From NCBI GenBank assembly GCA_964586005.1, contig CAZPFR010000001.1:39185-86493 (forward strand): 47,309 bases of DNA, read 5' to 3'. Positions 1 through 45,761 of the stretch are shown in pieces. This DNA comes from an uncultured Candidatus Peribacteria bacterium. Lineage in GTDB: Bacteria; Patescibacteriota; Gracilibacteria; Absconditabacterales; Absconditicoccaceae. A program made the translations under genes and the position numbers. Numbering within the stretch: position 1 is the stretch's first letter; each line of letters starts with the position of its first letter. The notes below the pieces were generated by a model. The model made no database searches, was not told the origin of the DNA, and worked only from the letters and a program-made list of their open reading frames with translations.

Positions 1-1046
1 TATTTTGATTTGTTATTTTTCTTTTCATTTTTTTTTGTTTTTTTTGAATTAATATGTTTATGAAATTTTTTTGTTAGTTTGTTTTTTGTTATAATTATTG
101 TGATAATTGCTATAACTACTAATAAAATTACTATTGATGCATATGTTTCTCGTCAAATAATTAGTATATTTGTTTGTTCTATTATTTCCCCATCTTTTAT
201 AGCATCATTTGTTTCTAATCAATTTCAAAGATTTGCTGAATGTATTACACTATATGTTATAGTAAAAGGTCCTTTATAAAAAGGTAAATCGTCTATTACG
301 TTATTGATATTTGATGCTTGTTTTGAAAATATAGTTCTTTTTTCTTCAAGAAATGTTTTTTTGTATCATAATCGATTTTTAATTTCTCATTTGATTGTTA
401 TTCATTGTTCTGCGGTTCCTTTATTTTGTAATATACTTTGTATGTATAATTTTTTTTCGTCTTTTTCAAAAAAACTTAGAATTTTTGAATTTTTTGAAAT
501 ACTTTTAATTTGAGAGGTAACATCTACAAATTCTAAACCGATGGAAACTACTCATTTGGCAAAAATATCTATGAAATTTGCTCTACGTACCATTACTTTG
601 AACATGTCTTTTTGGTTTTTTTCTCATTCTATGAAATAGGTTACACATCAACGTATTTCTCCAGCAGCTTCTTCAGGAAGTGTAATTGTTCCTGTAAGGG
701 TTGTACTTCATCTAGCTGGTACTGTTATTTTATTTGTTGGTATTGATACATATTTTCAAAAATTTTCATTTTCTCATTCATTTTTACACGCTTTTTTCTG
801 ATCAGCATCATTGGTTATCGTTCCATCGACAAAATTCATAGTAATAGAAACATCTTCGTTTCCTCAATTTATTAATACCATACAAATGTTTTGTTCTTGA
901 TTTCCACTTGTTGTAAGAGATATGGTTTTTTCTAATTTTTCTGGGTTATTACAGAATCTAAGTGCTACATCTCCAATACTTGCAGCATAAGTACTACTTA
1001 TACTTATTATTCAAAAAAGAAGTAACAACATTCCAAATTTTTTCAT
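1..1046 (-). CDS. secreted protein with signal peptide and C-terminal TM anchor (3' end runs off the window). The architecture resembles CscA/DUF916-type anchors of WxL surface clusters (inference).
   Basis: The code-25 reading from ATG 1046 stays open to the window edge (348 codons, many in-frame TGA, no TAA/TAG). The N-terminus MKKFGMLLLLFGIISISSTYAAS looks like a signal peptide. Near the C-end a hydrophobic helix ASIVILLVVIAIITIIIT is followed by the basic tail KNKLTKKFHKH. No enzyme motif recognised. Confidence 0.6.
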
Positions 1047-1106
1047 TTTTTGTTTATAAAATCTAAAATATTTATTTGTGTATAAAAAAATCTTTTTTAT
1101 ATGCAA

Positions 1107-4100
1107 CTAATTTTCATAAAGAGTATATGTTAATGTTGCATGATATGCATCGATACTAATAAATGCAGGAATATCAAATCTTAATCGTGGTTTATTTCAG
1201 TATTTTCATGTTATTCCATAATTTGTTTGGTTATCTCTTTTGATATATGTGATAGGATTTCCTATTGGTTGATAATTTGTTAATGAAGAATTTATTGTAA
1301 CACGTCGATTTGAATCCCCAGAAAGAAGTGTTATTCAATCTCATTTTAAATAAATATTACTATTGTCTATATTTTCATAATCTCATGATAAATCAGAAAT
1401 AGAAATGGTTGTATAATATCAATTATCAGTTCATATAGGATCTTCTATCCAAAAATAATCGTTGAATTGTTGTTCTACAATTTGAAGATCACTTGTTGCT
1501 TCTATATTTGCGTTTATCATACTTGGTCATCAAATATTTAGTGGGTTTTTGCATATTCGATTTACACTAGCAATTGCTATTCCGGTATTAAATCCTTCAT
1601 CTCTAAATGTAAAAGTAAATGTTCCATTTTCTGTAAATGTGTAGGTATTTGATCATTGATTATTGGTGATTACTATTGGTTCTGAATATCCTGTTAATGT
1701 TGCTATAATATCTCCATTATAACAAGATCATGAATTATGACTATATTCTATATATGCAGTTGGCGGTGTATTATCTACAAATTCTGCATATAAATTGTAT
1801 ACCTGACTAGGAGTTAATGTTTTGTTATATATACGAACATCATCTAACATTCATTTATAAAAAGTATTTGCTTGATTTGCACTTCTTCTGGCAAGGGTAA
1901 TATTGTTTATTGGATTGTATCATCAGGCATCTATAGACGAATTACTTATTTTTTCTATTCCATCAATATATACTGTAGCTTTCTTTTTGCCAGGAATTTC
2001 TCAATTATCATCTATTGTTAATGTATATAAATGTCGTTCATTATTTGTTAGTGTTGTGTATGTTGAAGAATTCAGATTTAATATTGTTTGTTGTCCATTT
2101 ATAAATGTTTTGATCATTTTATCACTATTGTTTAATACTATGTTTATAGAATTTACTGCACCACTATCTCAGTGACTAAAAAGATACATATTGTTTCCTG
2201 TGCTATTTGTTTTTAATCGAAAAGATACACTTAGATCTGGTCCATATTCAAAATCTACAATACTAACTTCATCGTTTACTCCATCAAATTGGAAGGCTTT
2301 CCCATTTACTCCGGTTTGATTTCTTATTACTCATCATAATAAAATTCAATAATTATTGTTTAATGAACTATCAAATGTTGTACTTCCTGATGGTTCTTCA
2401 AACTCTAACCAAGATCGTGCTGCTGGTAACCAGGTTGTTTGTGTTGATTGAATCTCAGATATTTGACTTTCTCCAGCACTATTTATTGCTTGGATTTTGT
2501 AGTAATATCGAGTTTCTTTTTGTAGTCAAGTTATCGTTTCTTTTGTATCTGTTATTACTTTTCCACTGTATCAGCTAATTGTTGTAGAAAACGTATTTGT
2601 TGTTGAGACTCGTAACTTATAAATGGTAGCTCATGTTGTTGATTCTCGATTTATTCTAAATCAATCATTATCTAGATAATTTGCTGGTTTGAATATTGGT
2701 TTTTCTGGTTTTGTTAAAAAACCTGATTGTGTAGTATATTTTGTTCAGTAATTATTTATAGCAAAACCTTTAAAATAAATCCATGTTCATCAAGGTAGTC
2801 CTGTTAAATTTAAAGAAAAAGTACCCGTATTTGATCGGTTTCAATATTCGCTTACTTTTGTTCAAATTCCATCATTAAATCAGTTTGCTGTACTTCGATA
2901 AAATCATCTTTCTGTAATAGTACTATTTCCTATTGATAAAATATTTGCTGTTGCTAATGCTGTATTTTCTGTAATATTTGTCGTAATATTCCCTGTTATT
3001 ATTGGTACTTCATTGAGATTTACTGTTGTAAATTTCCATATTCAAGATCCAATAATTCCTGGAAAGCTATTTCCTGCTATATCTCTAAATGCACCGCTTT
3101 GAATTTCTATATAATATCAGGTAAAATTTTCGAATGCTGTTCAATGTAGTATTGTTGCTGTAGTATTATTGATTATTACTTTGTTACTGCCTGCATCAAT
3201 TGTCTCAAATATACTATTGTCATGTGTTTTTTTGATATATATAGAGAACCCAGTATAAGCTCTGATATTTTCATCAAAATTAATAATTAAATTATTGTAT
3301 AAACCTACATTTGTTTCATTGGTATAAGGGCTTGTCGATAATATTTGTGGTTTTTCATTATCGGCAGCGTATGTAAGTGTTAACATAGGTCTTTCTCCTA
3401 TAGTTCAATATTCTTTTGAACGAATACATAACCAATAATCATTACTATCTCACATTGCTATTCATTGGTTTGTATCAGGATTATCTAACCAATTTTGTAC
3501 CCGAGATAATCAATTGCTATTTAAACTAAATTCTTGTGTAATATTATTTCCTATTGCCCCAGAAAAACTAAGTGTATTGGTTATATTTGTTGTTCCATAA
3601 TCTATTCCGTTTACCATACCAATATTTCCATTGTGTCGATATTTTTCTTGTCGTTTTATCATTTTGTAATTTAACTCTCCAATACTTGCTGTACTATTTG
3701 ATTTTGTTCATTCAACCCATCATGGATTGTTTATAATAGGTCTTAATGAAAAAGACATTCCAGATGCTTGTGATGTGATATAATATCTAGATAACCTAAG
3801 TTTTGCTGAAGTGATTTTTGATCCCACTGGTATACTGGAAACATTAAACTTCATTAAAACTCTTGATCAAAAATCAGAAGCACATAAATATTGCATTGCT
3901 CAATAATTATTTTCTTGACAAATTCCATCTCCACATCCATTTGTAATATCGGTATCTGCGTCAATCATTGTATCATCACTTGGATATAATTGTAGTCCTA
4001 CATATGGATCCATAAAATTAATTTTAATTCAAGTTATCGTACTATTGATAATTTCATAATCTTGTGCATTAGTAAACGCTCAGTTTCAAAATCTGATTTC

Positions 4101-7100
4101 TATAGTATTGATATCATTATTATTTGCATGATTTATAGCAGTTCAAGATAATCCTACTATCAAGGTTTGAGTTCCACTGAGATAAAAATTTGTAGTAAGT
4201 CCAGCTGGAACTCATGACATTGTGATACTACCATTGGTTGGTGCATTATTATTGAAGGTATGTCATGTTAATTCAAAACTGATTGTGTTTTTAATTTGTC
4301 CGTTGTTCAATATATCATCTTCATCGAAAATCAAATTTGTTCCTGTTATTAATCATTTTTTTATCCAATCTACTTTTGCTATACTTTCGTATGTTATTCC
4401 TGTGATACTTTGTATTTTATATATAAATTCCCCATTACCACTAAATGTGTACTGATTTGATCAATTATTGTTTGTAATAACATAATTATTTCCGTATCAA
4501 GTAATTGTGGCTATAACATTATCAAATGTTTCGTTGTTTTGAGAATAATTGGTTGTTCGTACAGGATATACCGTTAATCCATTTGGATATGTTATGCTAC
4601 CTGTCCTTCAGTAAATATTTATATAATTTAATGTTACATTATATACTCAAGAGTTTAATTCTGGTATTATATTCGTTTTCCAAGTTCCATTTTGATAATT
4701 TGTTGTTGGATAATTTATTCCATTGATGATAACTTCTATGTTCATGTTTTTATCAGGGCTTGTTCATTCAAGAACAGGTGTTTTGGTGAATACTGTTTTT
4801 GGTGAAAAACTAGGTGCTTTCATGTATAAATTTTGAATTTCTTGATTGGTGAGTGTTTTGTTGTATATACGTACTTCATCAATTGATCCGGAAAAATAGT
4901 TTGTTGTAGTTCCTGCATATTTTCAAATAGTTTGATGTTGTGATGTTGTGTCTAATGTTACACTATTGGTACTTGTTCATCATTGGATTCCATTTACATA
5001 AATTGTTCTACTAGTTGCAGAATTAAAAATTCCTACTACATGATACCATTGTCATGCTTGTGCAGAAATTGTTCCATTTGCTGTTCTTGATACAGTATTT
5101 CTTGCTGTAATTTGAAATGTTGCATTATTTAAATTAATTCAAAAATATCTATTATTTGAGTTACTTCTTCCTTTAAACACAATTCATTGAGTTCATGTGA
5201 TTCTATCTGGTTTTACCCAAGCAGAAATAGTGAAAGGATATGTTGATACGATAGGTTGAGTGATATTAATATATTGATTTGTACCATTGAAACTCATTGT
5301 TGGAAGTCATGATAGAGTAGTGGTGTAAACATTATTTATACTATTTGCTAGATAATTATTTGATGAAATATCATAAAAATATGTTCCTGTGTATGATCCG
5401 TCTACATGTAATTGTAGCCCTAAAGATTCTTGTGTAGGAGTAGTATCTAAATAAATAGTATCTTGAATATATGCAAAACCTCAATTTCCACTAAATATTC
5501 CATAAACAGTTTTTTCTCAGTTAGCGCCAGTAAGTGTTCGAGGATAATTTGTATCATAGGTAACCCGATTGGCGCTATCTCTTTCACTTGGCGTGTTTCC
5601 AAACTTCATATGAGTTGCTCCAGTAATGTTTGTTTGTAATGTTACATTATTGCTTGTAGTACTTATTTCATCATTATTTATTACAAAATTTCCTGACCAT
5701 ATTCCTAATGAAAATATGGTAAAATGATTCGTTTGAAAAGAAGCAAAAACTCAATTTTCTTCAGATTGTGTTTTAATTGTATCAAAATATTTCCATTCAT
5801 TTCCATCTTGAGAATATTGAATAATGATATTTTTTTCCTTGTAATATTCTGGTAGAGTTATTTTGATAGTAGCATTTTTATCATTTCCTATATCATCTTG
5901 TAAAAATATTGGTTCTTCAGCTCCTGCTTTAAATGTAGTGATATGTTCAACTCATTGTTGTGATTCTTTGTTTTCTATAGGAAAAAAATCTATAATTCAG
6001 GTATATTCGCTGTTATCATTTGTTTTTATAATAGTATTTTCTGGAAAAATTATTTCTCCTATAAAATTACTTTCCTCTTTTGTTATAATTGTTGCTTGTG
6101 GAATTAGTCATTCAGTTCTTTCTAAATCGAATCATTTTTTTCCTATTAAAATTTTCTTATCTTTTTTAGTTTCTTCCAAAAAACCTAAATTACATAATTC
6201 TTCTTTGAATATTGTATTTTTATCTTTTTTATTGGTTTCTTGTTCTGTTTCTCATGATTTTATAGTATCGATCTTTTGATCTTCTTCTGCTTTCTGATTA
6301 CTTTTAGTAAATGTTATCCATACTTCATTGATTCTTTTTCTGGTTGATGGTCCCATGTATCATTGAACTTTTTTATTGTCTTCTTGTCATTTTAATATGC
6401 TTTCTTTGAGTTGAAATTGATAGATTGCTTCTATTGTTCTTTGATCATATGTGTTATTTATTTCTCAATTATACACTCAGTATCGATATAAAAATTTTTG
6501 TAAATCTCCTATAAGTTGATTTTGCTCGTCTTTTTGAAATGGATTAGAAAAATAAGAATCTGATTTTTTGTTTTCTATTTCTTCTTCTATTTCTATTTTT
6601 TCAATATTTGTATCTGTCTTTTTAACTTTAGTTTCTATAATCTGTTTGTTGGTATCTTCTTCTTTTGTTATACTTATTTCTTTATTTTCTATTTCTTGTA
6701 ATTTTTTATCCTCTTGATTTATATTATTTTCTTTTGTATCATCGAGAGTTTTATCTGTAACTGGTAGTCAATTTGAAGTAAAAGGGGAGTATTTTCTTAT
6801 TAAATATTTATTTATTTCTGTTATTTCATAATTTGATAATCATCTATCATAAATTAATATCTCTGCAATATATCATCCTAATGGTAAAATACCTAATTTT
6901 AATGTTCATTCTGATTCTATTGGTTTTTGGAGAATAGTTATTTCATTGTTGTTCATATGAACTATTGTTCATCAAGAATTTGTGCTAATACTTATAGCTT
7001 TGAATGAATTATTTCATCGATAACTAGGAATATTTACACCTCCTGAAGCAAAAAATATAAAATTATTCTGGTCAAATCATACAAATCGTTTTTCATTACT

Positions 7101-7940
7101 TCCTATTGCTGAAGCAAATCATCAAGGAGTTATTTCTTTGTTGTATACCAAAAATAATGTATACTCTTTTTGAAGTCTGATGTTTGTTTCTAATTCATCG
7201 TCTATGTTATCAAAGAAAATTGCTGGATAATTATTGATAATATTCTCAACGTATAGTGGTTGTTTATTTTCTTTCTTTGCAAAAGCTTTATGTGAAAATC
7301 AACGTCTATCTTTTCGTTCTTGTACATTATTTCATGATTGAATAATGCTATTTGATTTATTTGCATCAAACCATGCTTCTAAGTTTTCTACATCAATAGG
7401 ACTATCTATTTCTTTTATTTCTATTGTAATATCTCAAGTAATTTCTTGAACATCTCAAGTGATTTCTTGAACATCTCAAGTGATTTCTTGAACATCTCAG
7501 GTTATTTCTTGAACATCTCAAGTAATTTCTTGAATATCTCAGGTTATTTCTTGAACATCTCAAGTAATTTCTTGAACATCTCAGGTTATTTCTTGAATAT
7601 CTCAAGTAATTTCTTGAATATCTCAGGTTATTTCTTGAACATCTCACGTAATTTCTTGGATGTTTCAAGATAAATTATCGTTTTGTTCGTCGTTTATATT
7701 TTCATCTTTGTTAATTATTTCATTTGTGTAAGTTTGAATTATTTCATCTTCGGTTATTATCGTTTGATCTCCAGTTTGAGCAAACATCGAATTTACAACA
7801 TAATATAGCCAAAATCCCAATACAACAAGACAAATATGCATATAACTTAAAAGTATATGTTTATGTTTATTTGCCAAATGTCCACTTTTGTGAATTAGAC
7901 TTCTGGCATTATGAATTATAAAATGTCTTGTTTTTCTCAT
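1107..7940 (-). CDS. giant (2277 aa) membrane-anchored multidomain surface/adhesin-like protein
   Basis: ATG 7940 to TAG 1107-1109. Every in-phase triplet was checked by hand: no TAA/TAG, many TGA. The track ORF 3141-3386 is in the same phase. Motifs seen: TM HICLVVLGFWLYYVVNSMFA; 11x (V/I)QEITGD. Three LamG-type domain ends: GGYIAEILIYDRGLSNYEI, GSIDEVRIYNKTLTNQEIQNLY, GMLDDVRIYNKTLTPSQVYNLY. PG-binding-like LIGDLQKFLYRYGVYNGEINNTYDQRTIEAIYQFQ (~6330-6540). DNRLRE-like ...KITSAKLRLS...SKEYGTIGERPMLTLTY (~3370-3990). Ig-like Big_5-type ...AFRDIAGNSFPG..WKFTT (~3030-3360). FN3-like RYYYKIQAINSAGES (~2440-2700). C-terminal WxL-like domain (~1107-1480). Confidence 0.85.
7431..7661 (-). repeat. 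11 tandem 21-bp in-frame repeats inside the giant gene
   Basis: Plus-strand unit atctcaagtaatttcttgaac x11, with variants at 3-4 positions. On the coding strand this is GTTCAAGAAATTACTTGAGAT = heptad (V/I)QEITGD. The Gly of every heptad is a TGA codon. Confidence 0.95.
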
Positions 7941-7980
7941 GATTTATAATTTTGATAATTCAAAATTGTTTCATATTACA

Positions 7981-8008
7981 ATTATATTATCTTTTCTCTA
8001 ATCAGCAA
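7981..8008 (-). promoter_or_regulatory. candidate sigma-70-type promoter of the giant gene
   Basis: Minus strand TTGCTG-N16-TATAAT (plus strand cagcaa 8003-8008, attata 7981-7986), about 40 nt upstream of ATG 7940. Confidence 0.35.
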
Positions 8009-8080
8009 TTTTAGTATAGTTTATTATTACAATGAGATTGTTATCTTGTTTTTTTTATTAATATTAGTTGACATTTTATA

Positions 8081-8116
8081 AAAAATAAAAAAAGAAGATG
8101 CGTTAAGCATCTTCTT
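8081..8116 (-). terminator. rho-independent terminator after the small WxL-like gene
   Basis: The minus-strand RNA reads AAGAAGAUGC-UUAAC-GCAUCUUCUU followed by a U-rich run. This is a 10-bp perfect stem (plus 8092-8101 / 8107-8116). Confidence 0.7.
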
Positions 8117-8139
8117 AGAAAAATTCAAAAAATTTATTA

Positions 8140-8706
8140 TTAATTTTCGATAATTGTATATGTTACTGTTGCTTGGTATGAACCAACTGCTTGATAAGCA
8201 GGTATAGTTACTTGTAGCCAAGGAAATGCTGCATATTGTCCTAATTTTCCAGCATTTGGAGCACTATCCCTTTTAATAAATGTTATAGCATTATTAAGTG
8301 GTGTGTAATTTAATAGAGTATTACTTACTACAACATTTGCATTAGCACTTCCATTGATAACTGATGTATTTACAGTGTCTACTTTTGCAGCAATATTTGC
8401 AGCTGGTATTGTTCCATTAGCTCCAGAAAGATCAGTTACTTGAAGAGTTGTGTAATATCAATCGTCAGCTCCTTTCATATCTTGAACTCGGAAGTAATTT
8501 CCTGTACCGAATTTTTTTTCTTGTGTGACTTCTGTTGTAGAAACAGCAAGACTTCCAAAATCTAATGCACCTGTTTGTCCAATAGTTACTTGTCCTCAGA
8601 TGATTGTTAAATAAACATCTGTACTTACTTGAGCTTTTGTTGTTGCGCCAAATATTGCAGCCAATAGGAAAGCCCCTACCAATAACGTTTTTGTTCTTTT
8701 AAACAT
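8140..8706 (-). CDS. small secreted protein with WxL-like domain, paralogous to the C-terminus of the giant protein
   Basis: ATG 8706, TAA 8140-8142, 188 aa. Signal peptide MFKRTKTLLVGAFLLAAIFGATTKAQV. NYFRVQDMKGADDGYYTTLQVTDLSG ... ITFIKRD ... FPWLQVTIPAYQAVGSYQATVTYTIIEN is collinear with the giant's DYFWIEDPIGTDNGYYTTISISDLSG ... ITYIKRD ... LRFDIPAFISIDAYHATLTYTLYEN. Confidence 0.8.
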
Positions 8707-8741
8707 TTTGTTTTAAATAAAAAATAAAATTTTTCATACTT

Positions 8742-8769
8742 ATTATAAGTGGAATTTTTTATTTTGCAA
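8742..8769 (-). promoter_or_regulatory. candidate promoter of the WxL-like gene
   Basis: Minus strand TTGCAA-N16-TATAAT (plus ttgcaa 8764-8769, attata 8742-8747), about 35 nt upstream of ATG 8706. Confidence 0.4.
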
Positions 8770-8843
8770 ATTTTTGAATATTTTTTTCATTAGGGAAATG
8801 ATGAAGATTAATCTTTGGTCTACTATGATCTTTGTGAAAAATT

Positions 8844-8866
8844 AAAAAAACATCTTTAGAAGATGC
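8844..8866 (-). terminator. rho-independent terminator after the 8922-9542 gene
   Basis: Minus-strand RNA GCAUCUU-CUA-AAGAUG followed by U7 (plus A-run 8844-8850). Confidence 0.5.
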
Positions 8867-8921
8867 TCTTTCAGTGGTCCTTTCTATTATTGAATGAAAA
8901 CAATCACAATAGGAAATTGAT

Positions 8922-9542
8922 TTATAATTCGTGTTCTTCTTTTTTTTCGAGATATTCTTTTATAACATCAGATAATACTTCTGTTAATAAAGATATTTGT
9001 TCGTTGTTTGTTTCTGGTTGTTTTGGGTCTAAATATGTTTTTTGTTTTATAGCATTTTCTTTTAATTTCATTATTTTTTTGATTTGTTTTTTTGGCATAT
9101 TTACTTGTTCAAAATCGTATGTTATACCATGATCTAGTTGGATTTTAATGTTTCCTTTCAAAAAGATTTTATCCCAAAATGTTTTTTGCTCGTGACTTAT
9201 TGTTTCTATAGCATCTCGTCAAAAAAATTCAGTTTTATTTTTTCGTATTCCATCCCGAGAAAAAAATGTTATTCATTGTTTTGATAAAATGATACAATCA
9301 ATTATTTTATTGAAAATATCTGTACTATATTTTATCAATAATAAAATACCAAGACCTATAAATATTCGTTTGAAAAAAGGCTGTTGGATATAATCTTTTA
9401 ATAAAAAATATATACAAAAAAGTATAGCTAATAATATAATTGTTCTAATACTATCTTTAAAAATAATGCTTCAATTGTGAAAAACAATGTCTTCGACACT
9501 GTCTTCATTTATATATTGACTGAAAAAGTTTTTGAGAATCAT
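8922..9542 (-). CDS. hypothetical membrane protein (2 TM plus soluble domain; weak resemblance to the YdbS/bPH layout)
   Basis: ATG 9542, TAA 8922-8924, 206 aa, in phase with track ORF 8922-9161 through three TGA codons. Hydrophobic stretches IRTIILLAILFCIYFLL and FIGLGILLLI. Confidence 0.6.
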
Positions 9543-9560
9543 ATAAAGATTGTTGTAAAA

Positions 9561-9785
9561 TTATTTTTGTATAGCATCAATCTTTTTTTGTTTTTCTAAG
9601 AATTTTTCCATTCTTCCTTTAACTACTTTCTTTATAACTTTGTCTTTGTTATATGTAGGATGACATTTGTAACACGTTTCGAGTTTTATAGGACCAGGAG
9701 TAGTTGTGCTTATTGTAAATGTTGCTCCGCAGATACAGTTTACTTCTACATTATTGAAGTATTTTGGATGAATTCAATCTTTCAT
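9561..9785 (-). CDS. rpmE: 50S ribosomal protein L31
   Basis: 74 aa, MKDGIHPKYFNNVEVNCICGATFTISTTTPGPIKLETCYKCHPTYN... The start matches the L31 signature (K-x-x-IHP-x-Y), with two Cys pairs. The 4th codon is TGA=Gly. Confidence 0.9.
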
Positions 9786-9870
9786 GATAAATAATATACG
9801 TTATAAATAGATAAATGTAGAAATGCTTTTGGCAAATTGGAAACCTACATTTGGTATGATAAGAAGTGTA

Positions 9871-10377
9871 TTAACGAGTAAATGCACAATGAATTGGCTT
9901 GTAATCAAAGATTTCTTGTTCAGAAAACCAGTGTTTTATTTCGGCTTCAGCTTCTTCTTTGTTACCTGATGCATGAACAAGATTTGGTAATCCGATGTTT
10001 TCTTTATCTGCATAATCAAAAGACATATGCGCGTAATCTCATCTAATAGTACCTGGTGCTGCTGATTTTGGTTCTGTGGATCATACAATTTTACGAACAT
10101 ATTCTACAGCACAAACTCATTCTAATATCATTGCAATAATAGGACTTTTTGTCATGAGATCTAGTACCATATCAAAAGGTTTTTGTCAACGACGAGAAAT
10201 CATTTGTCCTATATTTTCGTAGTGATGATATAGAAAGTCTTTATCTGGTTTTACCATTTTTATCCCTACAATATGGAGTCCAGCTCTTTCGAAGCGAGAA
10301 ATTATTTCTCAAGATATTGAACGTCAAACAGTGTCTGGTTTTAGCACAACCAAAGTTCTTTCTATTTTGCTCATCAT
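9871..10377 (-). CDS. ndk: nucleoside diphosphate kinase
   Basis: 168 aa: [36 protein letters not shown] ... ILEGVCAVEYVRKIVGSTEP..APGTIRGDY ... NLVHASG. TGA falls at conserved Gly positions (EG, VG, RGD). Confidence 0.92.
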
Positions 10378-10442
10378 GCTTTGTTATAAATAAAGCGTTT
10401 ATTATACATATGATTTTACTAGAAAAATTCAAGTACAAATAG

Positions 10443-11438
10443 TTAATATATACATATGTTTTCAATAGAAACTATTTTATTATTGTTTTTGTCTATCTTT
10501 GCACTTATTCCTTCTTGTTGGTTTATCCTTGGAAAATAATAATTTTGAGTTTCCTCAGTTTCTTCTATAATCGCTGGTAAATAATCTGATTGTATTGCAA
10601 AATTGTTTTTTTCAAAAAATATATTCAGATTTGGTAAATTTCATTCTATTTTATTTTCATTTTCTGCACTTGTATTGAGTATTGAAATTGAATTGTTTGT
10701 AAAATTTATTGTTACTTTGTATGTTTTGTTATTATAAATAAAAAATTTACTAGTGTTTTCTGTAATATTATTTATCACAAGGTATTCTTTGCTTGTTTTA
10801 CAGAATGTTTTTATTGTATCTTCTTTTATTGGTGGTTCAGATAAAAATTCTTTTGTTCTCATTTTATTGGTATTTGATCAATCTTGTTCTCTTTCCGGTA
10901 ATGCCATTATCATAACGTTACCTATTTCATTTGATGCTCATTCTCATCTTTCTATTATTGGTTCAGAATTTTTTATATTTGTATTTTCCTTTGTATATTT
11001 CGTTGATATTGTTTCTTTTTGTTCTATTTTATTTTCAGTTGATTGTTCTTTTACGGTTTCGTTTGTCTCTATTTCATTTGTTTTTATTTCATTATAAAAA
11101 GCTATTTGTTGAGTATTACTATTTTGATTGTTTTGGATATAATTAAAAATAATAAACATCAATATTCATGTAGTAATCGTAGAAAATCCAATTATCCAAT
11201 ATTTTATTCAATCAAATAATGGTCGTGTTTTTTTATTTTCTACCGTTGCTTTTTGTTTGTTAATTATTTGGATAATTTCCTTTTTAAGGACTATTTTGAA
11301 TTGATTTGTAAATGGTGTTTTTGGCTTATTTTCAATAAGTTCTTGAATTAAACTTTCAAGTTCTTTTTTTGTCATTTTTATACTAGGATCAATATTGGTA
11401 ATGTCGTTTATTATTTCTTGAATTATAGAATTTCCCAT
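10443..11438 (-). CDS. single-pass membrane protein downstream of the sigma factor (anti-sigma role proposed from position only)
   Basis: ATG 11438, TAA 10443-10445, 331 aa. It joins track ORFs 11208-11438, 10944-11162 and 10641-10862, all in one phase via TGA. TM IKYWIIGFSTITTGILMFIIFNYI. The extracytoplasmic part is N/E/K/T-rich. No HxxxCxxC zinc anti-sigma motif. Confidence 0.55.
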
Positions 11439-15042: not shown

Positions 15043-15272
15043 GATATTTAAAATAAAAAAATAAAAGATATTTTTAATACGTGAATTTCTCCAAAAAGAT
15101 ACATAAAAAATACATTATTACAATAATGATTAATTAGATTTGTTTTTTATGTTTAAATAAACCATTAAAATGTCAAATTTAAAAATAATTGATATGTCAG
15201 ATTTTTTGTTTTTTTATAAGATTTGTGTATAATTTTATTGGAAACTGTTTTTATTCTTTTATAACATATTCT

Positions 15273-16733
15273 ATGAACTTACAAGAACTTATTGCGACAT
15301 TAAATCCTCATCAACTTGCTTATATCAATATGGATCTCAAGGATCCTAAAAATGGGGATTATATGTTGAGTGTTTTTCATCTCATTCCTGGTGGGAAACT
15401 TAATATTTTGCAAGCGGCATGTGAAGTTGCTGCTGAATCTAGTACAGGGACAAATTTTTTGGTACAAACAGAAACTGCATACTCAAAAATGCTTAATGCA
15501 TTAGTATATCAAGTAGATTTGGAAAAAAATCTTGTACGGATTGCTTATCCATGGAGACTTTTTGATAGAAAAGGAAATGTTCAAAATATTTTGACGTATA
15601 TTGCAGGAAATGTCTTCTGAATGAAAGAAATTCAAGCCTTGAAACTTTTGGATGTTTGGTTTCCTCCTGCTATGCTTGAACAATATGATGGACCTAGTTA
15701 TACTTTGGATGATATGAGAAAATATCTCAATGTGTATGATAGACCAATTCTTGGAACTATTGTGAAACCAAAAATGGGACTTACTTCTGCTGAATATGCT
15801 GAAGTGGCTTATGATTTTCGGGTAGGATGAGGTGATTTTGTGAAAAATGATGAACCGCAGGCAGATCAAGATTTCTGTCCTTATGATAAAATGGTAGCTC
15901 ATATCAAAGAAGCTATGGATAAAGCAGTTAAAGAAACTGGTCAGAAAAAGGTACATTCATTTAATGTCTCAGCAGCAGACTATGATACGATGATTGCAAG
16001 ATGTGAGATGGTAGTAAATTCTGGTATGGAAAAAGGTAGCTATGCTTTCCTTATCGACTGAACTACAGCTGGATGGATGGCAGTACAAACACTTAGAAGA
16101 AAATATCCAGATGTGTTTATTCATTTTCATAGAGCAGGACATGGTGCTTTTACTAGACCAGAAAATCCTATTTGATATACTGTTTTAGTTTTATCTAAAT
16201 TTGCTAGACTTGCTGGAGCATCTGGAATTCATACCGGAACTGCTGGAGTTGGTAAAATGGCAGGAACTCCCGAAGAAGATGTTACAGCAGCACATAATAT
16301 TTTTTGACTTGATGCTCCAGGGCATATTTTCCAACAATCACGAGGAACTATTCCAGAAAACGATGAAGATCGATTAAATAAAGTCCAAGAAGATCATCAT
16401 CAACATCTAGTTAATGAAGATGATACTTGGAGAAATCTCAAAAAATGTTGTCCAATTATTTCTGGATGACTCAATCCAACTCTTTTGAAACCATTTATTG
16501 ATGTGATGTGAAATGTAGATTTCATTACAACTATGGGTGCTGGTTGTCATGCTCATCCTAGAGGAACAAAAATTGGAGCGACAGCATTAGTACAAGCATG
16601 TGAAGCATATAAAAAATGAATAGATATTGTAGAGTATGCAAAAGATCATATTGAACTTGCTGAAGCTATTGAATTTTTTACTAAGAAAGAAAATAAAGAT
16701 TTGAGGCATGCTGAGAGAAGAGAATCTAATTAA
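15273..16733 (+). CDS. rbcL: ribulose-1,5-bisphosphate carboxylase/oxygenase large subunit, form II-like / form II/III type
   Basis: 486 aa. It joins track ORFs 15189-15620, 15621-15830 and 15840-16061 in one phase. Catalytic motifs are present: GNVFG(TGA)[15 protein letters not shown](TGA)[27 protein letters not shown](TGA)[18 protein letters not shown](TGA)[13 protein letters not shown]. About 30 extra residues ([33 protein letters not shown], ~16347-16446) lie before the SGG motif. Confidence 0.93.
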
Positions 16734-36213: not shown

Positions 36214-36819
36214 ATGGAACAGAAACGAGAAAAATTAATAAAAGTATTTTTGGATAAAAATAAACAGATAAATTTGAGTGCAATTAGGGATGAACAAGGT
36301 GTTTATGATAAGCATATTCGTGATGCTTTGGAAATAAAAAATGTTTTTGATTTGGAATCGGGTATGAACGTATGTGATGTTGGTACAGGAGGTTGATTTC
36401 CTTTGTTGCCATTAGCAATTCAATATCCAAATGTTCAATTTATTGGAATTGATTCGGTTAAAAAGAAAATTGAAGCAGTTTCAGATATTACTAAACAATT
36501 GTGATTACATAATGTTGAACTTTTTTGGAAGAGAGCAGAAGAATGTAAAGAAATGGAGATGTCTTTTGATGTTATTACTGCTAGAGCAGTTGCTTATGTT
36601 GATAAACTTTTGCCTTGGACAAAACATTTATTAAAACAAGGAGGTATTTGGATTTTGTTTAAGCAAGTTGATGAGCAAGAAAGACAAGATCTTTTGCAAC
36701 TTTGTGGGGAGATGAATTTGAAATTAGAAAAGAGATATACCTATAAACTTTTTGAAGGAGATATCGAAAGAGTAATTTATGTAGTGAGAAGGCTTTGATG
36801 AATTTGGAAAATGAGATAA
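36214..36819 (+). CDS. rsmG: 16S rRNA (guanine527-N7)-methyltransferase
   Basis: 201 aa: ...NLSAIRDEQGVYDKHIRDAL...VCDVGTGGG(TGA)FPLLPLAI...DVITARAVA. Under code 25 the ORF runs through two TGA at 36796-36801 to TAA 36817-36819. Confidence 0.88.
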
Positions 36820-36847
36820 TAAATTTATACTTATTAATTTATCATTA

Positions 36848-38377
36848 ATGGATGAAAATCAATTGTTAGTAGATCAGCCACTTTGAGAAAAATTAATTAA
36901 AAAATGATTTTGGTTATATTTTTTCTCGTTTTTGATTGCTCCGGCATCATATTTTATAAAGGTTATTATTTCTAATTCCGTATCTGTTGCTGATGTCGGA
37001 GTATTGTATAGCATTGTTAGTTTGATAATGTTTTTGAATGTTTATAATGATTTATGATTGACTGAAAGTCTTCAATATTTTTTGCCAAGATATTGGATGA
37101 AAAAACAATATAATTATATCAAAACTTCTATTTATTTGAGTTTATTTGTTCAAATTTTTACGGCTTTGCTTATAGCAATTTTTTTGTGGTTTGGTGCTCC
37201 ATGGTTAGCAGAGCATTATTTTCATAGTGATAGTGTAGTGATAATTCTTAAATATTTTTGTTTTTATTTTTTGGGAATAAATCTTTTTCAGATTTTGCAA
37301 AGTATTTTTGTAGCTTTTCAGAGTACTTTTTCATTTCAATTTGTAGAATTTGTTAGGGTCTGGAGCATTGTTTGATTTTCTGTTTTATTTTTTTTTACTG
37401 GTAGACAAAGTATTGAACGATATAGTATTAATTGGGTATTATGATTGATTATATGAATATGTGTTGCAAGTTTTCTGTTTTATAAAAATTATAGAAAAAC
37501 TTTGTTACAAGGAAATCTTGTTTTTGAAAAACCTATGCTCAAAGAATATGTTAATTATTCACTTTGGTGTTTTGTAGGACTTAATACTGCTAATATTTTC
37601 TGACAAATTATTCAACAATTAATTATTGTTATTTTAGGGCCAGAATCAGCAGGATATTATAGTAATTTTATTAGTTTGTTTAGTATATCTGCTGCTATTA
37701 TTTCGCCTATTATGACTTTGATTTTTCCTTTGATTTCAGAATTGGTAATCAAAAAGGATATCATAAAACAAAAATCTTTATACTCATTTTTTTATACCTA
37801 TTTTGGAATTTTTGCTTTTTTATTGGCAAGTTTTTTTGTCGTAACTTGACCTGAAACGGCACTAATTCTTTTTGGTTATAAATTTGTTTTTTCTGGGCAA
37901 CTTTTTTCTTGGTGAATTATTGTTAGTATATTTACAACTTTTGTTAGTTTTAATTTTGCTGTTTTAGCTGGTATGTGAAAAATCAAGGAAAGAGTTAAGA
38001 TGTTACTTATTTCTGCTTGTGTAGTTATTGTTGTTTCTTTAATATGACTAACTACAATCTGAATTTATTGATCAATTTTGGCTTTATGATTGTGATATTG
38101 ATTATTGTTTTTATTGAGTTTTTTATTTCTTTATAAACATCTTCCTTTTTCTATTGATTGGAAATTTATAATAAAAAATATTATAGTAACATCTATATTG
38201 TCAATTGGAGTATGGTTGATAAAATCAGAATTATTTATATTTGATGATATCATGAGATGATCCAATTTATTAAAGTTAATTGGTATTTGATTAATTTTCT
38301 TTTTTGTTTTTATTGGAATTAATTGGAAAAGAGCTATGTTATTGAAAGATGAATTAATAAAAATGAGATCTAATTAG
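36848..38377 (+). CDS. wzx: oligosaccharide/polysaccharide flippase (Wzx-like, MOP superfamily)
   Basis: 509 aa, all in-phase codons checked. About 12-14 hydrophobic helices throughout. It includes track ORF 37058-37375. TAG at 38375-38377. Confidence 0.7.
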
Positions 38378-38445
38378 ATTGATATTGTTAATTAAATTAT
38401 TATTGTTTTTTGAAAAATATTTAAATTCTGATCATATGTCTATTT

Positions 38446-39381
38446 ATGAAAAAAATTCTTGTAACGTGAGGTGCTTGATTTATCTGAAGTCATTTGTGTA
38501 AAAAACTTTTGGAACAAGGTCATGAAGTTATTTGTTTAGATAATCTTTTTACGTGAAATAAAAGTAATATTGAGAACTTATTAGATAATCATAGATTTAC
38601 TTTTGTTCTTCATGATGTAACTCAACCTTTTTGGGCTCAAGTAGATGAAATTTATAATCTTGCGTGTCCGGCGTCACCTATTCATTATCAAAAAAATCCT
38701 GTAGAAACAATCAAAACATCCCTTTTGTGATCAATAAATATGTTGGAATTGTCATTGAAAGTAAAAGCTAAAATTTTGCAAACCTCTACTTCTGAAGTAT
38801 ATTGAGATCCTATGGTTCATCCACAACCAGAATCTTATTGGTGAAATGTAAATATTGTATGATGTAGATCGTGTTATGATGAAGGTAAAAGAGCTGCGGA
38901 AACATTATTTATGGATTATCATAGACAATATGGTGTAGATGTGAGAATAATTAGAATATTTAATACGTATGGTCCAAATATGCATCCTGCTGATGGTCGT
39001 GTTGTAAGTAATTTTATTATGCAGGCATTGAAAAATCAAGATATAACTATATATTGAGATGGTAGTCAAACGAGATCTTTTCAGTATGTCGATGATTTGA
39101 TTGACGGTATGATAACAATGATGAATAACGAAATTTGATTTATTTGACCCGTGAATATTGGTACAGAGTATGAATTTACTATCAAAGAATTAGCTGAAAA
39201 AGTTATTGAAATTATTTCGTGATGTACGAGTAAAATTGTTTATCAACAGCTTCCTAGTGATGATCCTAAACATAGGAGGACTGATAATAATTTGGCTAAA
39301 GAGAAATTATGATGGAATCCGATTATTGGTTTGGATGAAGGATTGGAAAGAACGGTAAAATATTTTAGAAAGTTTGTTTAG
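38446..39381 (+). CDS. uxs: UDP-glucuronate decarboxylase (UDP-xylose synthase, SDR family)
   Basis: 311 aa: MKKILVTG GAG FIG SHL (three of the Rossmann glycines are TGA), [104 protein letters not shown]. Confidence 0.9.
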
Positions 39382-39405
39382 TTTTTAAATTTTATATATT
39401 TTCAT

Positions 39406-40176
39406 ATGCAAGTAGTATTGTTAGCATGATGACTTTGAACTCGTTTATCTGAAGAAACTGTTGTTAGGCCAAAGCCTATGGTTGAGATTTGATGAAAACC
39501 TATTATTTGGCATATCATGAAATGATATGCACATCAATGATTTAATGAATTTATCATCTGTTTGTGATACAAGTGATATATGATAAAAGAATGGTTTTCT
39601 AATTATTATTTACATAATAGTGATATTACTATAGAAACGAAAACTAATACATTAACGGTACATAATAATAATTGTGATGATCGAAAAGTTACTTTGATAG
39701 ATACATGAGAAAATACTATGACAGGATGAAGAATCAAAAGAGTAGAAAATTATATAAATTGAGATGTATTCATGCTTACTTATGGTGATGGTGTAAGTGA
39801 TGTTAATGTAAAAGATGTTTTTGATTTTCATTGTAATCATTGAAAATTAGCTACACTTATTTCTGTTCAACCGGAAAATAGATTTGGAAAACTTGTTATA
39901 GAATGAGATAAAATAATGGAATTTTGAGAAAAGAAAGATAATGTAGGTCAGAATATTAATTGATGATTTATGGTCCTTAATAAAAAAGTGATTAATTATA
40001 TTGATTGAGATTTTATGCCATTTGAAAAAGAACCATTAGAAAATCTTGCTAAAGATTGAGAACTTATGGCATATAAGCATAATTGATTTTGGTTTGCAAT
40101 GGATACAATAAAACATAAACAAGATCTTGAGCAATTGCGAAATTCGTGAAAAGCCCCATGGAAAAAACGATCTTAA
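39406..40176 (+). CDS. rfbF: glucose-1-phosphate cytidylyltransferase
   Basis: 256 aa: [41 protein letters not shown]...FIICLGYKGYMIKEWF...TLIDTGENTMTGGRIKRV...TYGDGVSDVN...INGGFMVL...HNGFWFAMDTIKHKQDLEQLRNSGKAPWK. Confidence 0.92.
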
Positions 40177-40195
40177 TTTAGTAATTTTTTCTTTT

Positions 40196-41152
40196 ATGAA
40201 AAATATTTTGCTAACTTGAAGTACATGATTTATTTGAAGTCATTTATTAATAGCTTTAATTGGTGAATGATTTGATGTTTTTTCTATAATTAGAAAATGA
40301 TCTGATATTTCTAGAATTACCAGATATTTATGAAATCCTAAATTACATATTATATATATAAATAAAAATGAAGATATTGAAAAACTTTTTTTGAAAAATA
40401 AAATAAATTTTATTATACATTTAGCAACAACTTACAGAAAAACACATAATAAACCAGATATAGATGAGATGATAAAAACCAATATTGCTTTTTGAACTTA
40501 TTTATGTGATCTAGCTGTTAAAAATTGAGTTAATTATTTTATAAATACGTGAACTTTTTTTGAATATGCTCATTATAAAAATAAAGACAATATTATAACA
40601 GAAAAGACAACAGAAAGAGCGTATAATTTATATGCATCAACAAAATTAGCTTTTAATAATATAGTTAAATATTATACAGAAAATTATAATTTTAAATCTA
40701 TTACTTTGAGATTGTTTTCTCCTTATTGACCTAAAGATAATGATAAAATTATACCTCTTATAATAAAGAATACTATAGATGATAGTAATATTTTACGTCT
40801 TTCTTGAGGAAAGCAAAAATTAAGTTTTACTTATATAGATGATATAATTTCTGCTTATTTATTGTCTTTAAAATATATAGTCAAAACGAATAAAAAATTT
40901 GATATTTTTAATATATGATCTTCTGAAACTTTATCATTAAAAATGGTATATAAATATATAATTGAAATAGCTAAGAAATCTGGAAAAAATATTGAATTTT
41001 GAGCATTACCATATTCTGAAAATGATATTTTTTATTCTTGATGTGATAATACAAAGGCAAGAAATAAATTATGATGGACTACTAAATATTCAATAAAAGA
41101 ATGATTGTTTTTTACTTATAAAAGTTATTTGAATGAAATTTATAAAAACTAA
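40196..41152 (+). CDS. NAD(P)-dependent SDR epimerase/reductase; candidate CDP-3,6-dideoxyhexulose 4-reductase (RfbS/AscF-like, function inferred from context)
   Basis: 318 aa: MKNILLTG(TGA)STG(TGA)FIG(TGA)SHLL, YxxxK as YASTK. It sits between rfbF and the cupin epimerase. Confidence 0.65.
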
Positions 41153-41678
41153 TTTAAATACTGTTTTTGAAGTTTTTTTTGATGTGTTTTCAGATGAAAG
41201 ATGATCTTTTATAAAAACATTTCATAATGAGGATTTTTATAAAATTTGATTAAAAGATTCTTTTAAAGAGAGTTTTTATTCTATATCAAAGAAAAATGTT
41301 ATAAGATGAATGCATTTTCAAAATCCTCCTTATGATCATGATAAATTTGTCTATCCTATACAATGAAGTGTTCTTGATGTTGTTCTTGATCTTAGAAGAA
41401 ATAGTATAACATATTGAAAATATGTTTCCGTGAATTTATCAAAAGAAAAAAATAATTGAATATTTATTCCTAGATGATTTGCTCATTGATTTTTAACACT
41501 TAGTGATGATGCAATTCTTGTTTATATGGATACAACAATTTTTAATAAAGAAAGTGACTCATGAATACATTGGAATTCTTTTTGAATGGATTGGTCTGTT
41601 GAAAATCCCATTATTTCAGAAAAAGATAGAAATTTATCTTCTTTGTTAGATTTTGATACTCCTTTTATTTTAGAATAA
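41133..41678 (+). CDS. RmlC-type cupin sugar-nucleotide 3,5-(or 5-)epimerase (RfbC/AscE-like)
   Basis: 181 aa: FSDERG(TGA)SFIKTF...IRG(TGA)MHFQNPPYDHDKFVYPIQG(TGA)SVLDVVLDLRRNSITYG(TGA)KY...IFIPRG(TGA)FAHG(TGA)F. The start overlaps the preceding gene by 20 nt. Confidence 0.8.
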
Positions 41679-41684
41679 AGAATC

Positions 41685-42728
41685 ATGCAAGAATTTTATA
41701 AATGAAAAACTATATTATTAACTTGATCAACAGGTTTTAAATGAAGTTGGTTGGCTTTATGGTTACATAGTATGTGAGCAAAGGTAATAGGATATGGATT
41801 AATACCCAATACTGAGCCCAATCTATTTACTGCATTAGAATTGAATCAGAAAATAATTCAAATAATCTGAGATATAAATGATACTGAATTATTATCAAAA
41901 ACTATTGATGAATATCAACCTGAGATGATCTTTCATCTTGCAGCACAACCATTGGTAAGAGATAGTTATGAAAATCCTATGTATACTATCAAAACTAATG
42001 CTATGTGAACAACTGTTGTTTTGGAAATGATCAGAATAAAAGAATACATAAAATGAGCGGTATTGATAACAACTGATAAAGTATATGAAAACAAAGAATG
42101 GATTTGGCCTTATAGAGAAAATGATAGATTATGATGACATGATCCCTATAGTAGTAGTAAAGCTATGGCAGAAATAGCAATAACATCGTATACAAAATCA
42201 TTTCTCCATGAATGAAATAAAAAAATAGCAGTAGTTAGAGCATGAAATGTAATAGGATGATGAGATTGGTCAAAAGATAGATTGATACCAGATATTGTAA
42301 GATCTATTATGCAATGAGAAAAGTTAATACTTAGAAATCCTAATGCAGTTAGACCTTGGCAATATGTTCTTGAGGCACTATTTTGATATCTAAATATAGG
42401 AATAAAAATATTTGAAGGTGATAAATATTTATGAGCATATAATTTTTGACCAGATATTAGTGATACACTTAAAGTCATAGATATTGTTACCAAATCTATT
42501 GAAATTTTGGGAAAATGAACATATGAGGTTAACTTAGAAATGAATAACTGAATGCATGAAGCTGGTTTGTTGCTACTTGATAATACAAAAGCTAAACTTC
42601 TTTTATGATGGAAGCCAAAATATAATGTTCAAGAAGTTCTTGAAAGAACAATTAATTTTTATAGGGCATTTTATAATCAAGAAGATATTAAAAAATTAGC
42701 ATTGAATGAGATAAATCAATTTATGTAA
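41685..42728 (+). CDS. rfbG: CDP-glucose 4,6-dehydratase
   Basis: 347 aa: KTILLTGSTGFKGSWLALWLHSMGAKVIGYGL...IFHLAAQPLVRDSYENP..TIKTNAMGT...ITTDKVYENKEWIWPYRENDRLGGHDPYSSSKAMAE...VRAGNVIGGGDWSKDRLIPD...RPWQYVLE. Confidence 0.92.
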
Positions 42729-42753
42729 TATTTTATTTTTATAAAGGTTTATT

Positions 42754-45750: not shown

Positions 45751-45761
45751 ATCTTATTTTA

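Follow-up and report, generated by a model that had tools for sequence, protein, structure and literature searches.

The first 8.8 kb of the DNA analysed here, a 47,309-nt stretch of contig CAZPFR010000001.1 from an uncultured Candidatus Peribacteria bacterium (in what follows, the window is this whole stretch), contain three consecutive minus-strand genes that most probably form a divergent WxL cell-surface cluster of the Absconditabacteria (SR1), for which we propose a docking mechanism below. WxL or Csc clusters were defined in Lactobacillales and Bacillales (Siezen 2006, PMC1534035; Hassan & Williamson 2022/2023, PMC9772566, PMC10599100), and examples are loci A–C of Enterococcus faecium, the elr operon of E. 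faecalis, the csc clusters of L. plantarum and those of Listeria. By the published criterion, a cluster comprises one or more WxLIPs together with two or more WxL proteins, all encoded within four genes of one another (PMC10599100), and more than 91 % of WxL sequences are from Firmicutes, 99 % of those being from Bacilli (PMC9772566). A previous reading of the window from sequence alone had pointed to three consecutive minus-strand genes carrying signal peptides or anchors, and all three open reading frames (ORFs) are indeed present once UGA is taken as a sense codon:

8140–8706, minus strand: small WxL-like gene, 188 aa, with one CGA codon (W73) and two UGA codons (Gly)
8629–8706, minus strand: signal peptide of the small protein, residues 1–26, of classical type in its sequence
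8143–8628, minus strand: WxL-like domain of the small protein, residues 27–188, a single domain
1107–7940, minus strand: giant, or large WxL, gene, 2277 aa
1–1046, minus strand: WxLIP-like gene of the DUF916-DUF3324-transmembrane type, 348 codons without a stop, its 3′ end lying past the left edge of the window

The window has a GC content of 26 % and contains 2 ORFs longer than 150 aa with translation table 11, versus 55 with tables 4 or 25, in which UGA is sense; the three genes can be read only in the latter way. Six orthologous giants were aligned and the residues opposite UGA and CGA codons were compared. Gly stood opposite UGA in 46 % of the pairs, with a background of 4.8 %, and Trp essentially never, so that UGA is read as Gly and code 4 (UGA = Trp) was rejected. 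The partners of CGA were CGA or UGG exclusively, and never the Arg codons AGA or CGU, which led us to reject also plain code 25, the code of the previous reading: beside UGA for Gly, CGA and CGG behave as Trp codons in this genome. For Absconditabacteria, Shulgina & Eddy (PMC8629427) had predicted the same change of CGA/CGG to Trp with Codetta. The giant gene contains 19 CGA and 2 CGG, giving 21 reassigned Trp codons versus 17 UGG, as well as 97 UGA codons for Gly. The corrected translation changes R73 of the small protein to W73 (YFWVQD, as in many homologues) and alters 21 residues of the giant, which then reads KPWLRF. Since CGA and CGG are read as Trp, public translations with code 25 or code 4 are wrong at these sites; database copies of the small-protein homologues have W at UGA or R at CGA.

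Homology to the Firmicute system was evaluated with profiles. Reference proteins came from 29 metagenome loci with Firmicute-like GC content and cluster layout, found by using the DUF916 signature as a DNA pattern, from which we took the DUF916 proteins and the neighbouring dual-WxL proteins, including 20 Firmicute small WxL proteins; in a sample of them, Pfam recognizes strong WxL proteins (up to 244 bits) and WxLIP_PGBD+HBD proteins. With hhalign, the family of the small protein from the candidate phyla radiation (CPR) matched the Firmicute small WxL proteins at 97.0 % (E 9.7e-11, 144 columns), in agreement with its earlier description as WxL-like, and the C-termini of Firmicute large WxL proteins at 91.3 % (E 9.6e-7, 148 columns). 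The CPR family of the third protein matched Firmicute WxLIP at 98.0 % (E 1.5e-13) over 307 columns that comprise both domains and the transmembrane (TM) region. For reference, Firmicute small and large WxL proteins match each other at 97.9 % (E 6.4e-13, 135 columns), and mismatched controls between families gave 0.2–1.8 %. Individual relatives are also recognized by Pfam: the WxL model matches 13 of 23 close and 25 of 86 broader relatives of the small protein (best E 1.6e-8), and WxLIP_PGBD matches 9/38 relatives of the third protein (best E 1.2e-6). In addition, precomputed annotation places PF13731 on two members of the small-protein family and PF06030 on two relatives of the third protein, and one JGI record of the family was already labelled 'WxL domain surface cell wall-binding'. 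Profile comparisons thus identify both families as distant but genuine relatives of WxL and WxLIP.

The third gene had been credited from sequence alone with a CscA-like layout. The layout is borne out by the hhalign match and by structure comparison; the gene is cut by the window edge, and only a few codons should be missing because its orthologues have 349–356 aa. The protein has the arrangement of a WxLIP (signal peptide, PGBD, HBD and C-terminal TM helix; 337–365 aa), with the following parts:

981–1046, minus strand: signal peptide
~627–977, minus strand: first beta-sandwich, with the Pfam PGBD match at 642–911
~159–584, minus strand: second beta-sandwich
87–143, minus strand: C-terminal hydrophobic TM helix, residues 302–320
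3–86, minus strand: Lys-rich tail

We used the AlphaFold2 (AF2) model of an SR1 orthologue, P0172, in place of the edge-truncated protein of the window. The model (pLDDT 84.8) consists of a signal helix, a beta-sandwich, a low-confidence linker, another beta-sandwich, a TM helix at residues 299–325 and a disordered tail. Foldseek against 350,542 PDB chains ranked three WxLIP chains of E. faecium first (E 4e-12 to 6e-11; TM-score 0.54–0.60): 9i25_C, which is the WxLIP of locus A bound to a long WxL protein, and 9i1y_A/B. Chaperones of chaperone-usher pili, CfaA and CsuC, came next (E 1e-10 to 1e-7).

The signal sequence of the small protein is predicted to be cleaved between MFKRTKTLLVGAFLLAAIFGATTKA and QV, and is followed by one domain, an organization that agrees with that of small WxL proteins (signal peptide plus a single domain of ~160–190 residues). 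The AF2 model available is that of a database copy, P0001, with two Gly-to-Trp changes at UGA codons and Arg for Trp at position 73; it displays a helix at residues 5–16 and one all-beta domain spanning residues 27–188 (pLDDT 91.6). The first motif is Y84-Y-T, and among 86 relatives its first residue is Y in 68, W in 13 and F in three. The second is Y183-T-I, with Y in 66, F in 16 and W in none of them, and its residue at +2 is L or I in 82; the proposal that Y replaces W was therefore correct for both positions. Around the motifs the skeleton is kept: D76 (W1-8) is invariant, K78 (W1-6) is basic, and G79...G83 corresponds to a turn. The hhalign alignment of the family superposes these same published positions, with D at W1-8, a basic amino acid at W1-6, the turn delimited by G...G, an aromatic side chain at W1 and the C-terminal T-aromatic-T-L. 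The mature N-terminus (TDVYLTI...) is also strongly conserved in the family.

Several results weigh against a WxL assignment. Taken singly, the small protein scores 23.0 bits (code 25) or 20.2 bits (corrected translation) with the Pfam WxL model PF13731 (residues 38–184, profile positions 45–209 of 214), below the gathering threshold of 25 bits, and the third protein scores 25.2–25.3 bits with WxLIP_PGBD/DUF916 (PF06030), whose cut-off is 27.3, without any PF11797 (HBD/DUF3324) match in its second domain. Hence, of the three Pfam models suggested beforehand as a check, WxL and DUF916 were hit specifically but below threshold, and DUF3324 was not hit. The C-terminus of the giant alone matches no Pfam model, and an NCBIfam scan of the three proteins gave nothing relevant. 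Neither the single proteins nor the profile of the small-protein family found a match among PDB sequences. In sets of 1.84 billion and 5.8 billion proteins, the family profile retrieved CPR relatives and no annotated Firmicute WxL protein. The top 50 Foldseek matches of the small-protein model do not include the long-WxL chain of 9i25, and no small-WxL structure is among the matches listed, which we do not count as negative evidence. Trp-x-Leu motifs are not literally present, Trp never occurring at motif 2 among the 86 relatives, and the WxLIP signature NQIDKxxxYFDLK is not kept in the third protein, where it aligns with NNPEKL--EKTI-SLT and retains solely K..KT..L. Finally, the literature usually ascribes adhesion in these lineages to type IV pili, as a metaproteogenomic study did for Gracilibacteria (PMC11452946).

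The scores under the gathering cut-offs and the missing motifs, together with an identity of 12–18 % between the CPR proteins and their Firmicute counterparts, could be taken to mean that the similarity is spurious, a product of beta-rich composition or generic Ig folds in an unrelated, lineage-specific set of secreted proteins. We regard this as very improbable. Two independent and adjacent families each match the partner families of one known cluster, with hhalign values of 97–98 % for matched pairs versus those of the mismatched controls; Foldseek puts WxLIP structures ahead of all other chains; and the architecture, the lengths and the C-terminal placement agree. Moreover, a Pfam-verified Firmicute large WxL protein scores just 21 bits, equally low, so that sub-threshold scores are normal for divergent members.

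The C-terminus of the giant contains a second copy of the domain of the small protein. BLASTP aligns both over 126 residues with 41 % identity (E 8e-33), in accordance with the homology previously noticed over the last ~125 residues, and the motifs then quoted appear in the alignment; both proteins end in EN-stop. The giant has the structure of a large WxL protein, with the domain at its extreme C-terminus behind adhesion-type domains:

7773–7940, minus strand: His/Lys-rich N-region and hydrophobic segment ending in MFAQ, residues 1–56, read from the sequence
7431–7667, minus strand: 21-bp tandem repeat encoding (G-D-V/I-Q-E-I-T)n; Tandem Repeats Finder gives 7431–7658, 10.9 copies, 89 % matches
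6405–6518, minus strand: PG_binding_1, a peptidoglycan-binding domain, residues 475–512 (PF01471, 24.1–25.5 bits, cut-off 23)
4833–5288, minus strand: Laminin_G_3, concanavalin-like lectin domain, residues 885–1036 (PF13385, E 6.6e-43, in two stretches)
3024–3362, minus strand: Big_5, bacterial Ig-like domain, residues 1527–1639 (PF13205, E 6.2e-10, 40.2 bits)
2451–2627, minus strand: fibronectin type III-like domain, residues 1772–1830 (PF00041, sub-threshold, 20.4 bits versus 25)
~1806–2301, minus strand: second Laminin_G_3 copy, ~residues 1880–2045
1110–1541, minus strand: C-terminal WxL-like domain, residues 2134–2277 (family hidden Markov model, HMM, E 6.3e-45)

The N-region is a putative signal peptide or signal anchor and is conserved in the orthologues of loci L002 and L006, two SR1 relatives. 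It is followed by the 7-residue repeat, every unit of which has a UGA codon for Gly and which may function as a stalk of variable length; Pfam matches in this region to LPP, CsbD, DUF948 and MCPsignal were dismissed as low-complexity or repeat artefacts. The two Laminin_G_3 copies share the end motif VRIYNKTLT, found at residues 1023 and 2035. Orthologues of 2088–2930 aa occupy the same position in SR1 relatives. Firmicute clusters have distinct small-type and large-type domains, whereas here both domains are of the small subtype: in hhalign, the C-termini of CPR large proteins reached 88.1 % with Firmicute small WxL and 8.6 % with Firmicute large WxL, and the spacing between the two motifs is 99 for the small protein and 97 for the giant, compared with 99–120 in small and 83–88 in large Firmicute references.

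The cluster is conserved in relatives. Close homologues of the small protein (57–76 % identity) occur in Absconditabacteria/SR1, including the complete genome CP006913.1 (RAAC1_SR1_1), and remoter ones, down to 39 % identity, include sequences from Peribacteria. A profile search with the family retrieved 514 cluster representatives (E <= 1e-3); of the 150 listed, most have 180–260 aa and some reach 1848 aa, the long ones bearing the domain at the extreme C-terminus, and the named members belong exclusively to Absconditabacteria, Gracilibacteria, Peribacteria, unspecified Patescibacteria or 'gcode 4' bacteria. CP006913.1 and DHYS01000028.1 share with the window a gene order that ends with the small gene, a giant (2088–2323 aa) and a 349/356-aa protein; both also have NDK and L31 upstream, and the genes for an extracytoplasmic function (ECF) sigma factor and a TM protein are kept in CP006913.1.

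A lack of synteny in related genomes had been named in advance as one of the observations that would refute the proposal. In GTDB representative genomes, the third-protein family appears at 26 loci, labelled Absconditabacteria/Absconditabacterales, "Peribacteria", Patescibacteria or unclassified bacterium, and we searched the code-25 ORFs of these loci, found through the WxLIP-like gene, with the HMMs of both families. The synteny holds: a WxL-like domain is encoded near the WxLIP-like gene in 25 of the 26, and a small and a large carrier are both present in at least 13, most of the others being cut by contig ends. Consequently, a WxLIP-like protein and at least two WxL-like proteins lie within four genes in the window and in at least 13 of the 26 related loci. 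Gene order varies among the loci. The large carriers range from 690 to 2990 aa, with the domain always at the extreme C-terminus and N-terminal parts that vary greatly.

A recent horizontal transfer from a Firmicute, or contamination of the assembly with Firmicute DNA, might be invoked because nearly all other WxL clusters are from Lactobacillales and Bacillales (PMC9772566). This explanation can practically be dismissed: all three genes use UGA for Gly and CGA/CGG for Trp, the cluster has a GC content of 26 %, like the rest of the window, and the flanking synteny is kept in a complete SR1 genome. Likewise, the identity to Firmicute proteins is 12–18 %, and the family has members in Absconditabacteria, Gracilibacteria and Peribacteria.

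In SR1 relatives, a gene for a fourth secreted protein of 462–476 aa follows the cluster, in a position that would be beyond the left edge of the window (L002, 18887–20275; L006, 18820–20250), and this protein may be a fourth component. Its mature N-terminus, VDLYLSIV or TDIYLQII, resembles the strand TDVYLTII of the small protein, and its C-terminus has a partial SLH match (21.6 bits, cut-off 20.8). No gene with an LPxTG motif adjoins the cluster within the window, and the downstream gene of the SR1 relatives is also without LPxTG.

From its homology to the enterococcal system, the cluster could work as follows. All three proteins would be exported by Sec. The WxLIP-like protein would be a type-I protein of the bacterium's own cytoplasmic membrane, with two Ig-like beta-sandwiches outside, a single TM helix and, from the positive-inside rule, its Lys-rich tail in the cytoplasm. 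Its membrane-distal first domain might dock the WxL-like domains of both the small protein and the giant, probably through a beta-strand inserted into an incomplete WxL sandwich; in enterococcal WxLIP-WxL pairs, AF2 predicts a WxLIP strand that completes the WxL sandwich (Hassan et al., PMC10599100). The WxL-like domains may also hold non-covalently to the cell wall, and genes for the whole of peptidoglycan synthesis are reported in Gracilibacteria (PMC11452946), which supports the availability of this ligand. Such a platform would present outward the ~2100-residue N-terminal array of the giant (repeat stalk, PG_binding_1, two LamG lectin-like modules, Big_5 and fn3), which would bind the surface of another cell. 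Attachment to a host or prey is the most likely role because a predatory lifestyle is reported for the cultivated Absconditabacteria (PMC11452946). The analysis shows the homology of both families, the arrangement of domains and the conservation of cluster and terminator; the physical interactions, the wall binding, the stoichiometry of the components and the role in attachment, the last proposed already from sequence alone, are parts of this scheme that we infer.

Two putative expression signals flank the small gene:

8742–8769, minus strand: sigma-70-like match TTGCAA-16 nt-TATAAT upstream of the small gene, a consensus match only
8092–8116, minus strand: 10-bp hairpin and T-run resembling an intrinsic terminator, 24 nt past the stop codon of the small gene

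The small gene had been assigned its own consensus-like promoter and a strong terminator. The second of these is well supported, since a hairpin with a 7–13-bp stem and a T-tract appears at an equal distance after the small gene in all 14 orthologous or related loci analysed, with unrelated stem sequences, which is good evidence for a conserved putative terminator or attenuator. The promoter-like site is the best minus-strand match (10/12) within positions 1–9900, although such sites are not enriched over shuffled sequences. Differential expression of the small gene and the giant is thus plausible given the conserved terminator. With its own promoter-like site and a terminator setting it apart from the giant, the small protein is probably made in excess, which we consider a reasonable reading of these signals.

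An excess of small protein would also be expected of the major subunit of a fibre. The small protein could be a pilus-like subunit that polymerizes by donor-strand exchange through its conserved N-terminal strand TDVYLTI..., with the giant as tip adhesin bearing a single pilin-like domain at its C-terminus and the WxLIP-like protein as membrane-anchored chaperone or base, the whole being a monoderm equivalent of chaperone-usher assembly. In Foldseek, the small-protein model gives weak matches, dominated by donor-strand-complemented pilins and archaeal fibre subunits (FimA/FimG, CfaB, CsuA/B, archaeal cannulae, Sulfolobus 0406 filament; prob <=1.0, TM-score 0.4–0.5), and the WxLIP-like model matches CfaA and CsuC, the chaperones of these same pili, after the WxLIP structures. 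Completion of an Ig-like sandwich by a strand of the partner is likewise the predicted binding mode of WxLIP and WxL (PMC10599100), the terminator follows the gene of the presumed major subunit in 14/14 loci, and the highly conserved mature N-terminus has a similar motif at the start of the fourth gene's product in relatives. Nevertheless, the TM-scores of 0.3–0.5 with high root-mean-square deviations perhaps reflect generic Ig-like similarity, and an N-terminal strand is present also in Firmicute small WxL proteins, for which fibres have not been reported. The domain of the giant keeps its N-terminal segment, LNIGGPSMI, which aligns with LTIIGGQVTI of the small protein; a FimH-type acceptor domain without the strand was therefore rejected, and the giant is not a clean acceptor-only tip. 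Furthermore, no usher-like or sortase-like assembly gene was found in the cluster, nor an usher-like gene in the window or the related loci.

We consider the fibre improbable, and equally improbable the broader idea that WxL-WxLIP is the monoderm or CPR counterpart of chaperone-usher donor-strand complementation, to which it might even be distantly homologous, and a new class of attachment fibres; if it were true, a fibre standing on a WxLIP base and tipped by a lectin-rich giant would let CPR predators and epibionts with recoded genomes hold on to their hosts. Compared with the chaperone-usher systems (FimA/FimC, CfaB/CfaA, CsuA/B-CsuC) and archaeal fibres, the likeness extends to the small protein resembling pilins, the WxLIP-like protein resembling two-domain chaperones, the mode of strand completion and the terminator behind the major-subunit gene. 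In contrast, the SR1 cluster has neither an usher gene nor an outer membrane, its 'chaperone' is TM-anchored, and the structural similarity is weak (TM-score 0.3–0.5) and accompanied by no detected sequence similarity. These models give hints of a deeper relationship, or of convergence, between the WxL-WxLIP and donor-strand systems.

With the same homology, the products of the cluster might form a surface coat, such as an S-layer-like envelope or a wall-maintenance layer, instead of an attachment apparatus. An apparently high expression of the small protein, as suggested by its promoter-like site and conserved terminator, would suit a coat, as would the SLH-like C-terminus encoded by the next gene in relatives; PG_binding_1 could bind the bacterium's own wall, and the cluster adjoins NDK, L31 and an ECF sigma factor gene, housekeeping genes in conserved synteny. 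We find a coat unlikely, however, because the variability of the N-terminal parts of the large proteins (690–2990 aa) is typical of adhesins under diversifying selection and not of lattice proteins, LamG, Big_5 and fn3 are typical adhesin modules, and Firmicute WxL clusters are tied to adhesion and virulence (PMC9772566, PMC10599100).

A divergent WxL cluster, the reading that we prefer, shares with the known WxL/Csc clusters the minimal set of one small WxL protein, a large protein with the C-terminal domain behind adhesin-type modules and a WxLIP of ~350 aa, as well as the skeleton D-x-(R/K)-G-x3-G-aromatic ... T-aromatic-T-L and the motif spacing of small WxL proteins. It differs in its host, a member of the CPR/Patescibacteria (Gracilibacteria/Absconditabacteria) with a recoded genome, and in having Tyr or Phe for the signature Trp (Trp at motif 1 in 13/86, at motif 2 never). 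Both CPR domains are small-type, whereas the Firmicute large protein has a distinct and shorter large-type domain. Firmicute small WxL proteins have a Pro-rich linker after the N-terminal strand, which the small protein here lacks (188 versus ~235–265 aa), and the WxLIP-like protein has invariant Cys residues instead of the conserved NQIDKxxxYFDLK. The LPxTG partner, frequent and not essential in Firmicutes, is absent, with an SLH-like fourth gene in relatives, and the giant has 2277 aa (up to ~2990 in relatives), compared with 500–1000 reported and a maximum of ~1600 in the metagenomic references. Since WxL is otherwise nearly confined to Lactobacillales and Bacillales, the cluster should be viewed as a known system in a new and remote variant and not as a new kind of system.

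Domains of this type have been listed for other CPR genomes: the CPR entries in Table S5 of PMC10599100 are only isolated proteins with DUF916 alone from Kazan GW2011_GWA1_50_15 (VE98_C0001G0381) and Nanosynbacter lyticus TM7x (TM7x_00820). These are similar in having a DUF916/WxLIP_PGBD-type domain and differ in being listed without a WxL partner or cluster; divergent WxL-like partners may have been overlooked in that survey. The survey table has no SR1 entry and does not contain the SR1/Gracilibacteria cluster, presumably because of its sub-threshold Pfam scores, and in the literature searched we found no paper linking WxL clusters with CPR or Patescibacteria. In function, the terminal module would be analogous to SLH, LysM, GW and CWB modules in holding a large modular adhesin on the wall without sortase; those have unrelated folds and sequences and need no dedicated membrane-anchored partner.

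A complete and conserved three-component WxL-type cluster thus extends to very distant lineages of ultra-small, host-dependent bacteria, the Absconditabacteria, Gracilibacteria and Peribacteria. Because Tyr or Phe suffice in them, the tryptophans that gave the domain its name appear to be dispensable, which bears on the role of the motif. The attachment of CPR epibionts and predators is poorly understood, and the cluster is a concrete, syntenic candidate for the anchoring and display of their giant surface proteins. Standard annotation misses such genes through wrong public codes (UGA taken for stop or Trp, CGA/CGG for Arg) and narrowly missed Pfam thresholds; the re-annotation offered here, based on homology, would have mechanistic implications for CPR attachment.

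Variants of the cluster were seen among the related loci. Tandem pairs of WxLIP-like genes occur in L018, L019, L021, L024, L025, L027 and L032; the second gene of the pair is short in five of them (~215–245 aa, the first domain only) and longer in L018 and L019, and most of these loci have beside the pair a small WxL-like gene that is transcribed divergently. In L005 (Peribacteria CP060225.1, 42 % GC), the WxLIP-like gene (7244–8566, a 441-aa ORF) and the small WxL-like gene (9938–10594) are separated by another ORF, the cluster adjoins groES/groEL, and no large carrier was detected within 10 kb. This layout indicates that the cluster can be reduced or rearranged.

Upstream of the cluster, the window contains the sigma factor and TM protein genes mentioned above, followed by NDK and L31:

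11464–12033, minus strand: gene for an ECF-type sigma-70 factor, upstream of the cluster
10446–11438, minus strand: gene for a single-pass TM protein, possibly an anti-sigma factor, downstream of the ECF sigma gene

Further into the window, a surface-glycan cluster on the plus strand (36785–46730) encodes a Polysacc_synt flippase, two NAD-dependent epimerases/dehydratases, a sugar nucleotidyltransferase, a DegT-family aminotransferase and a GT2 glycosyltransferase. A gene similar to that of the RuBisCO large subunit (15189–16730, plus strand) lies beside an M29 aminopeptidase-like gene, and its orthologues in L002 and L006 match the Pfam models RuBisCO_large_N and RuBisCO_large.

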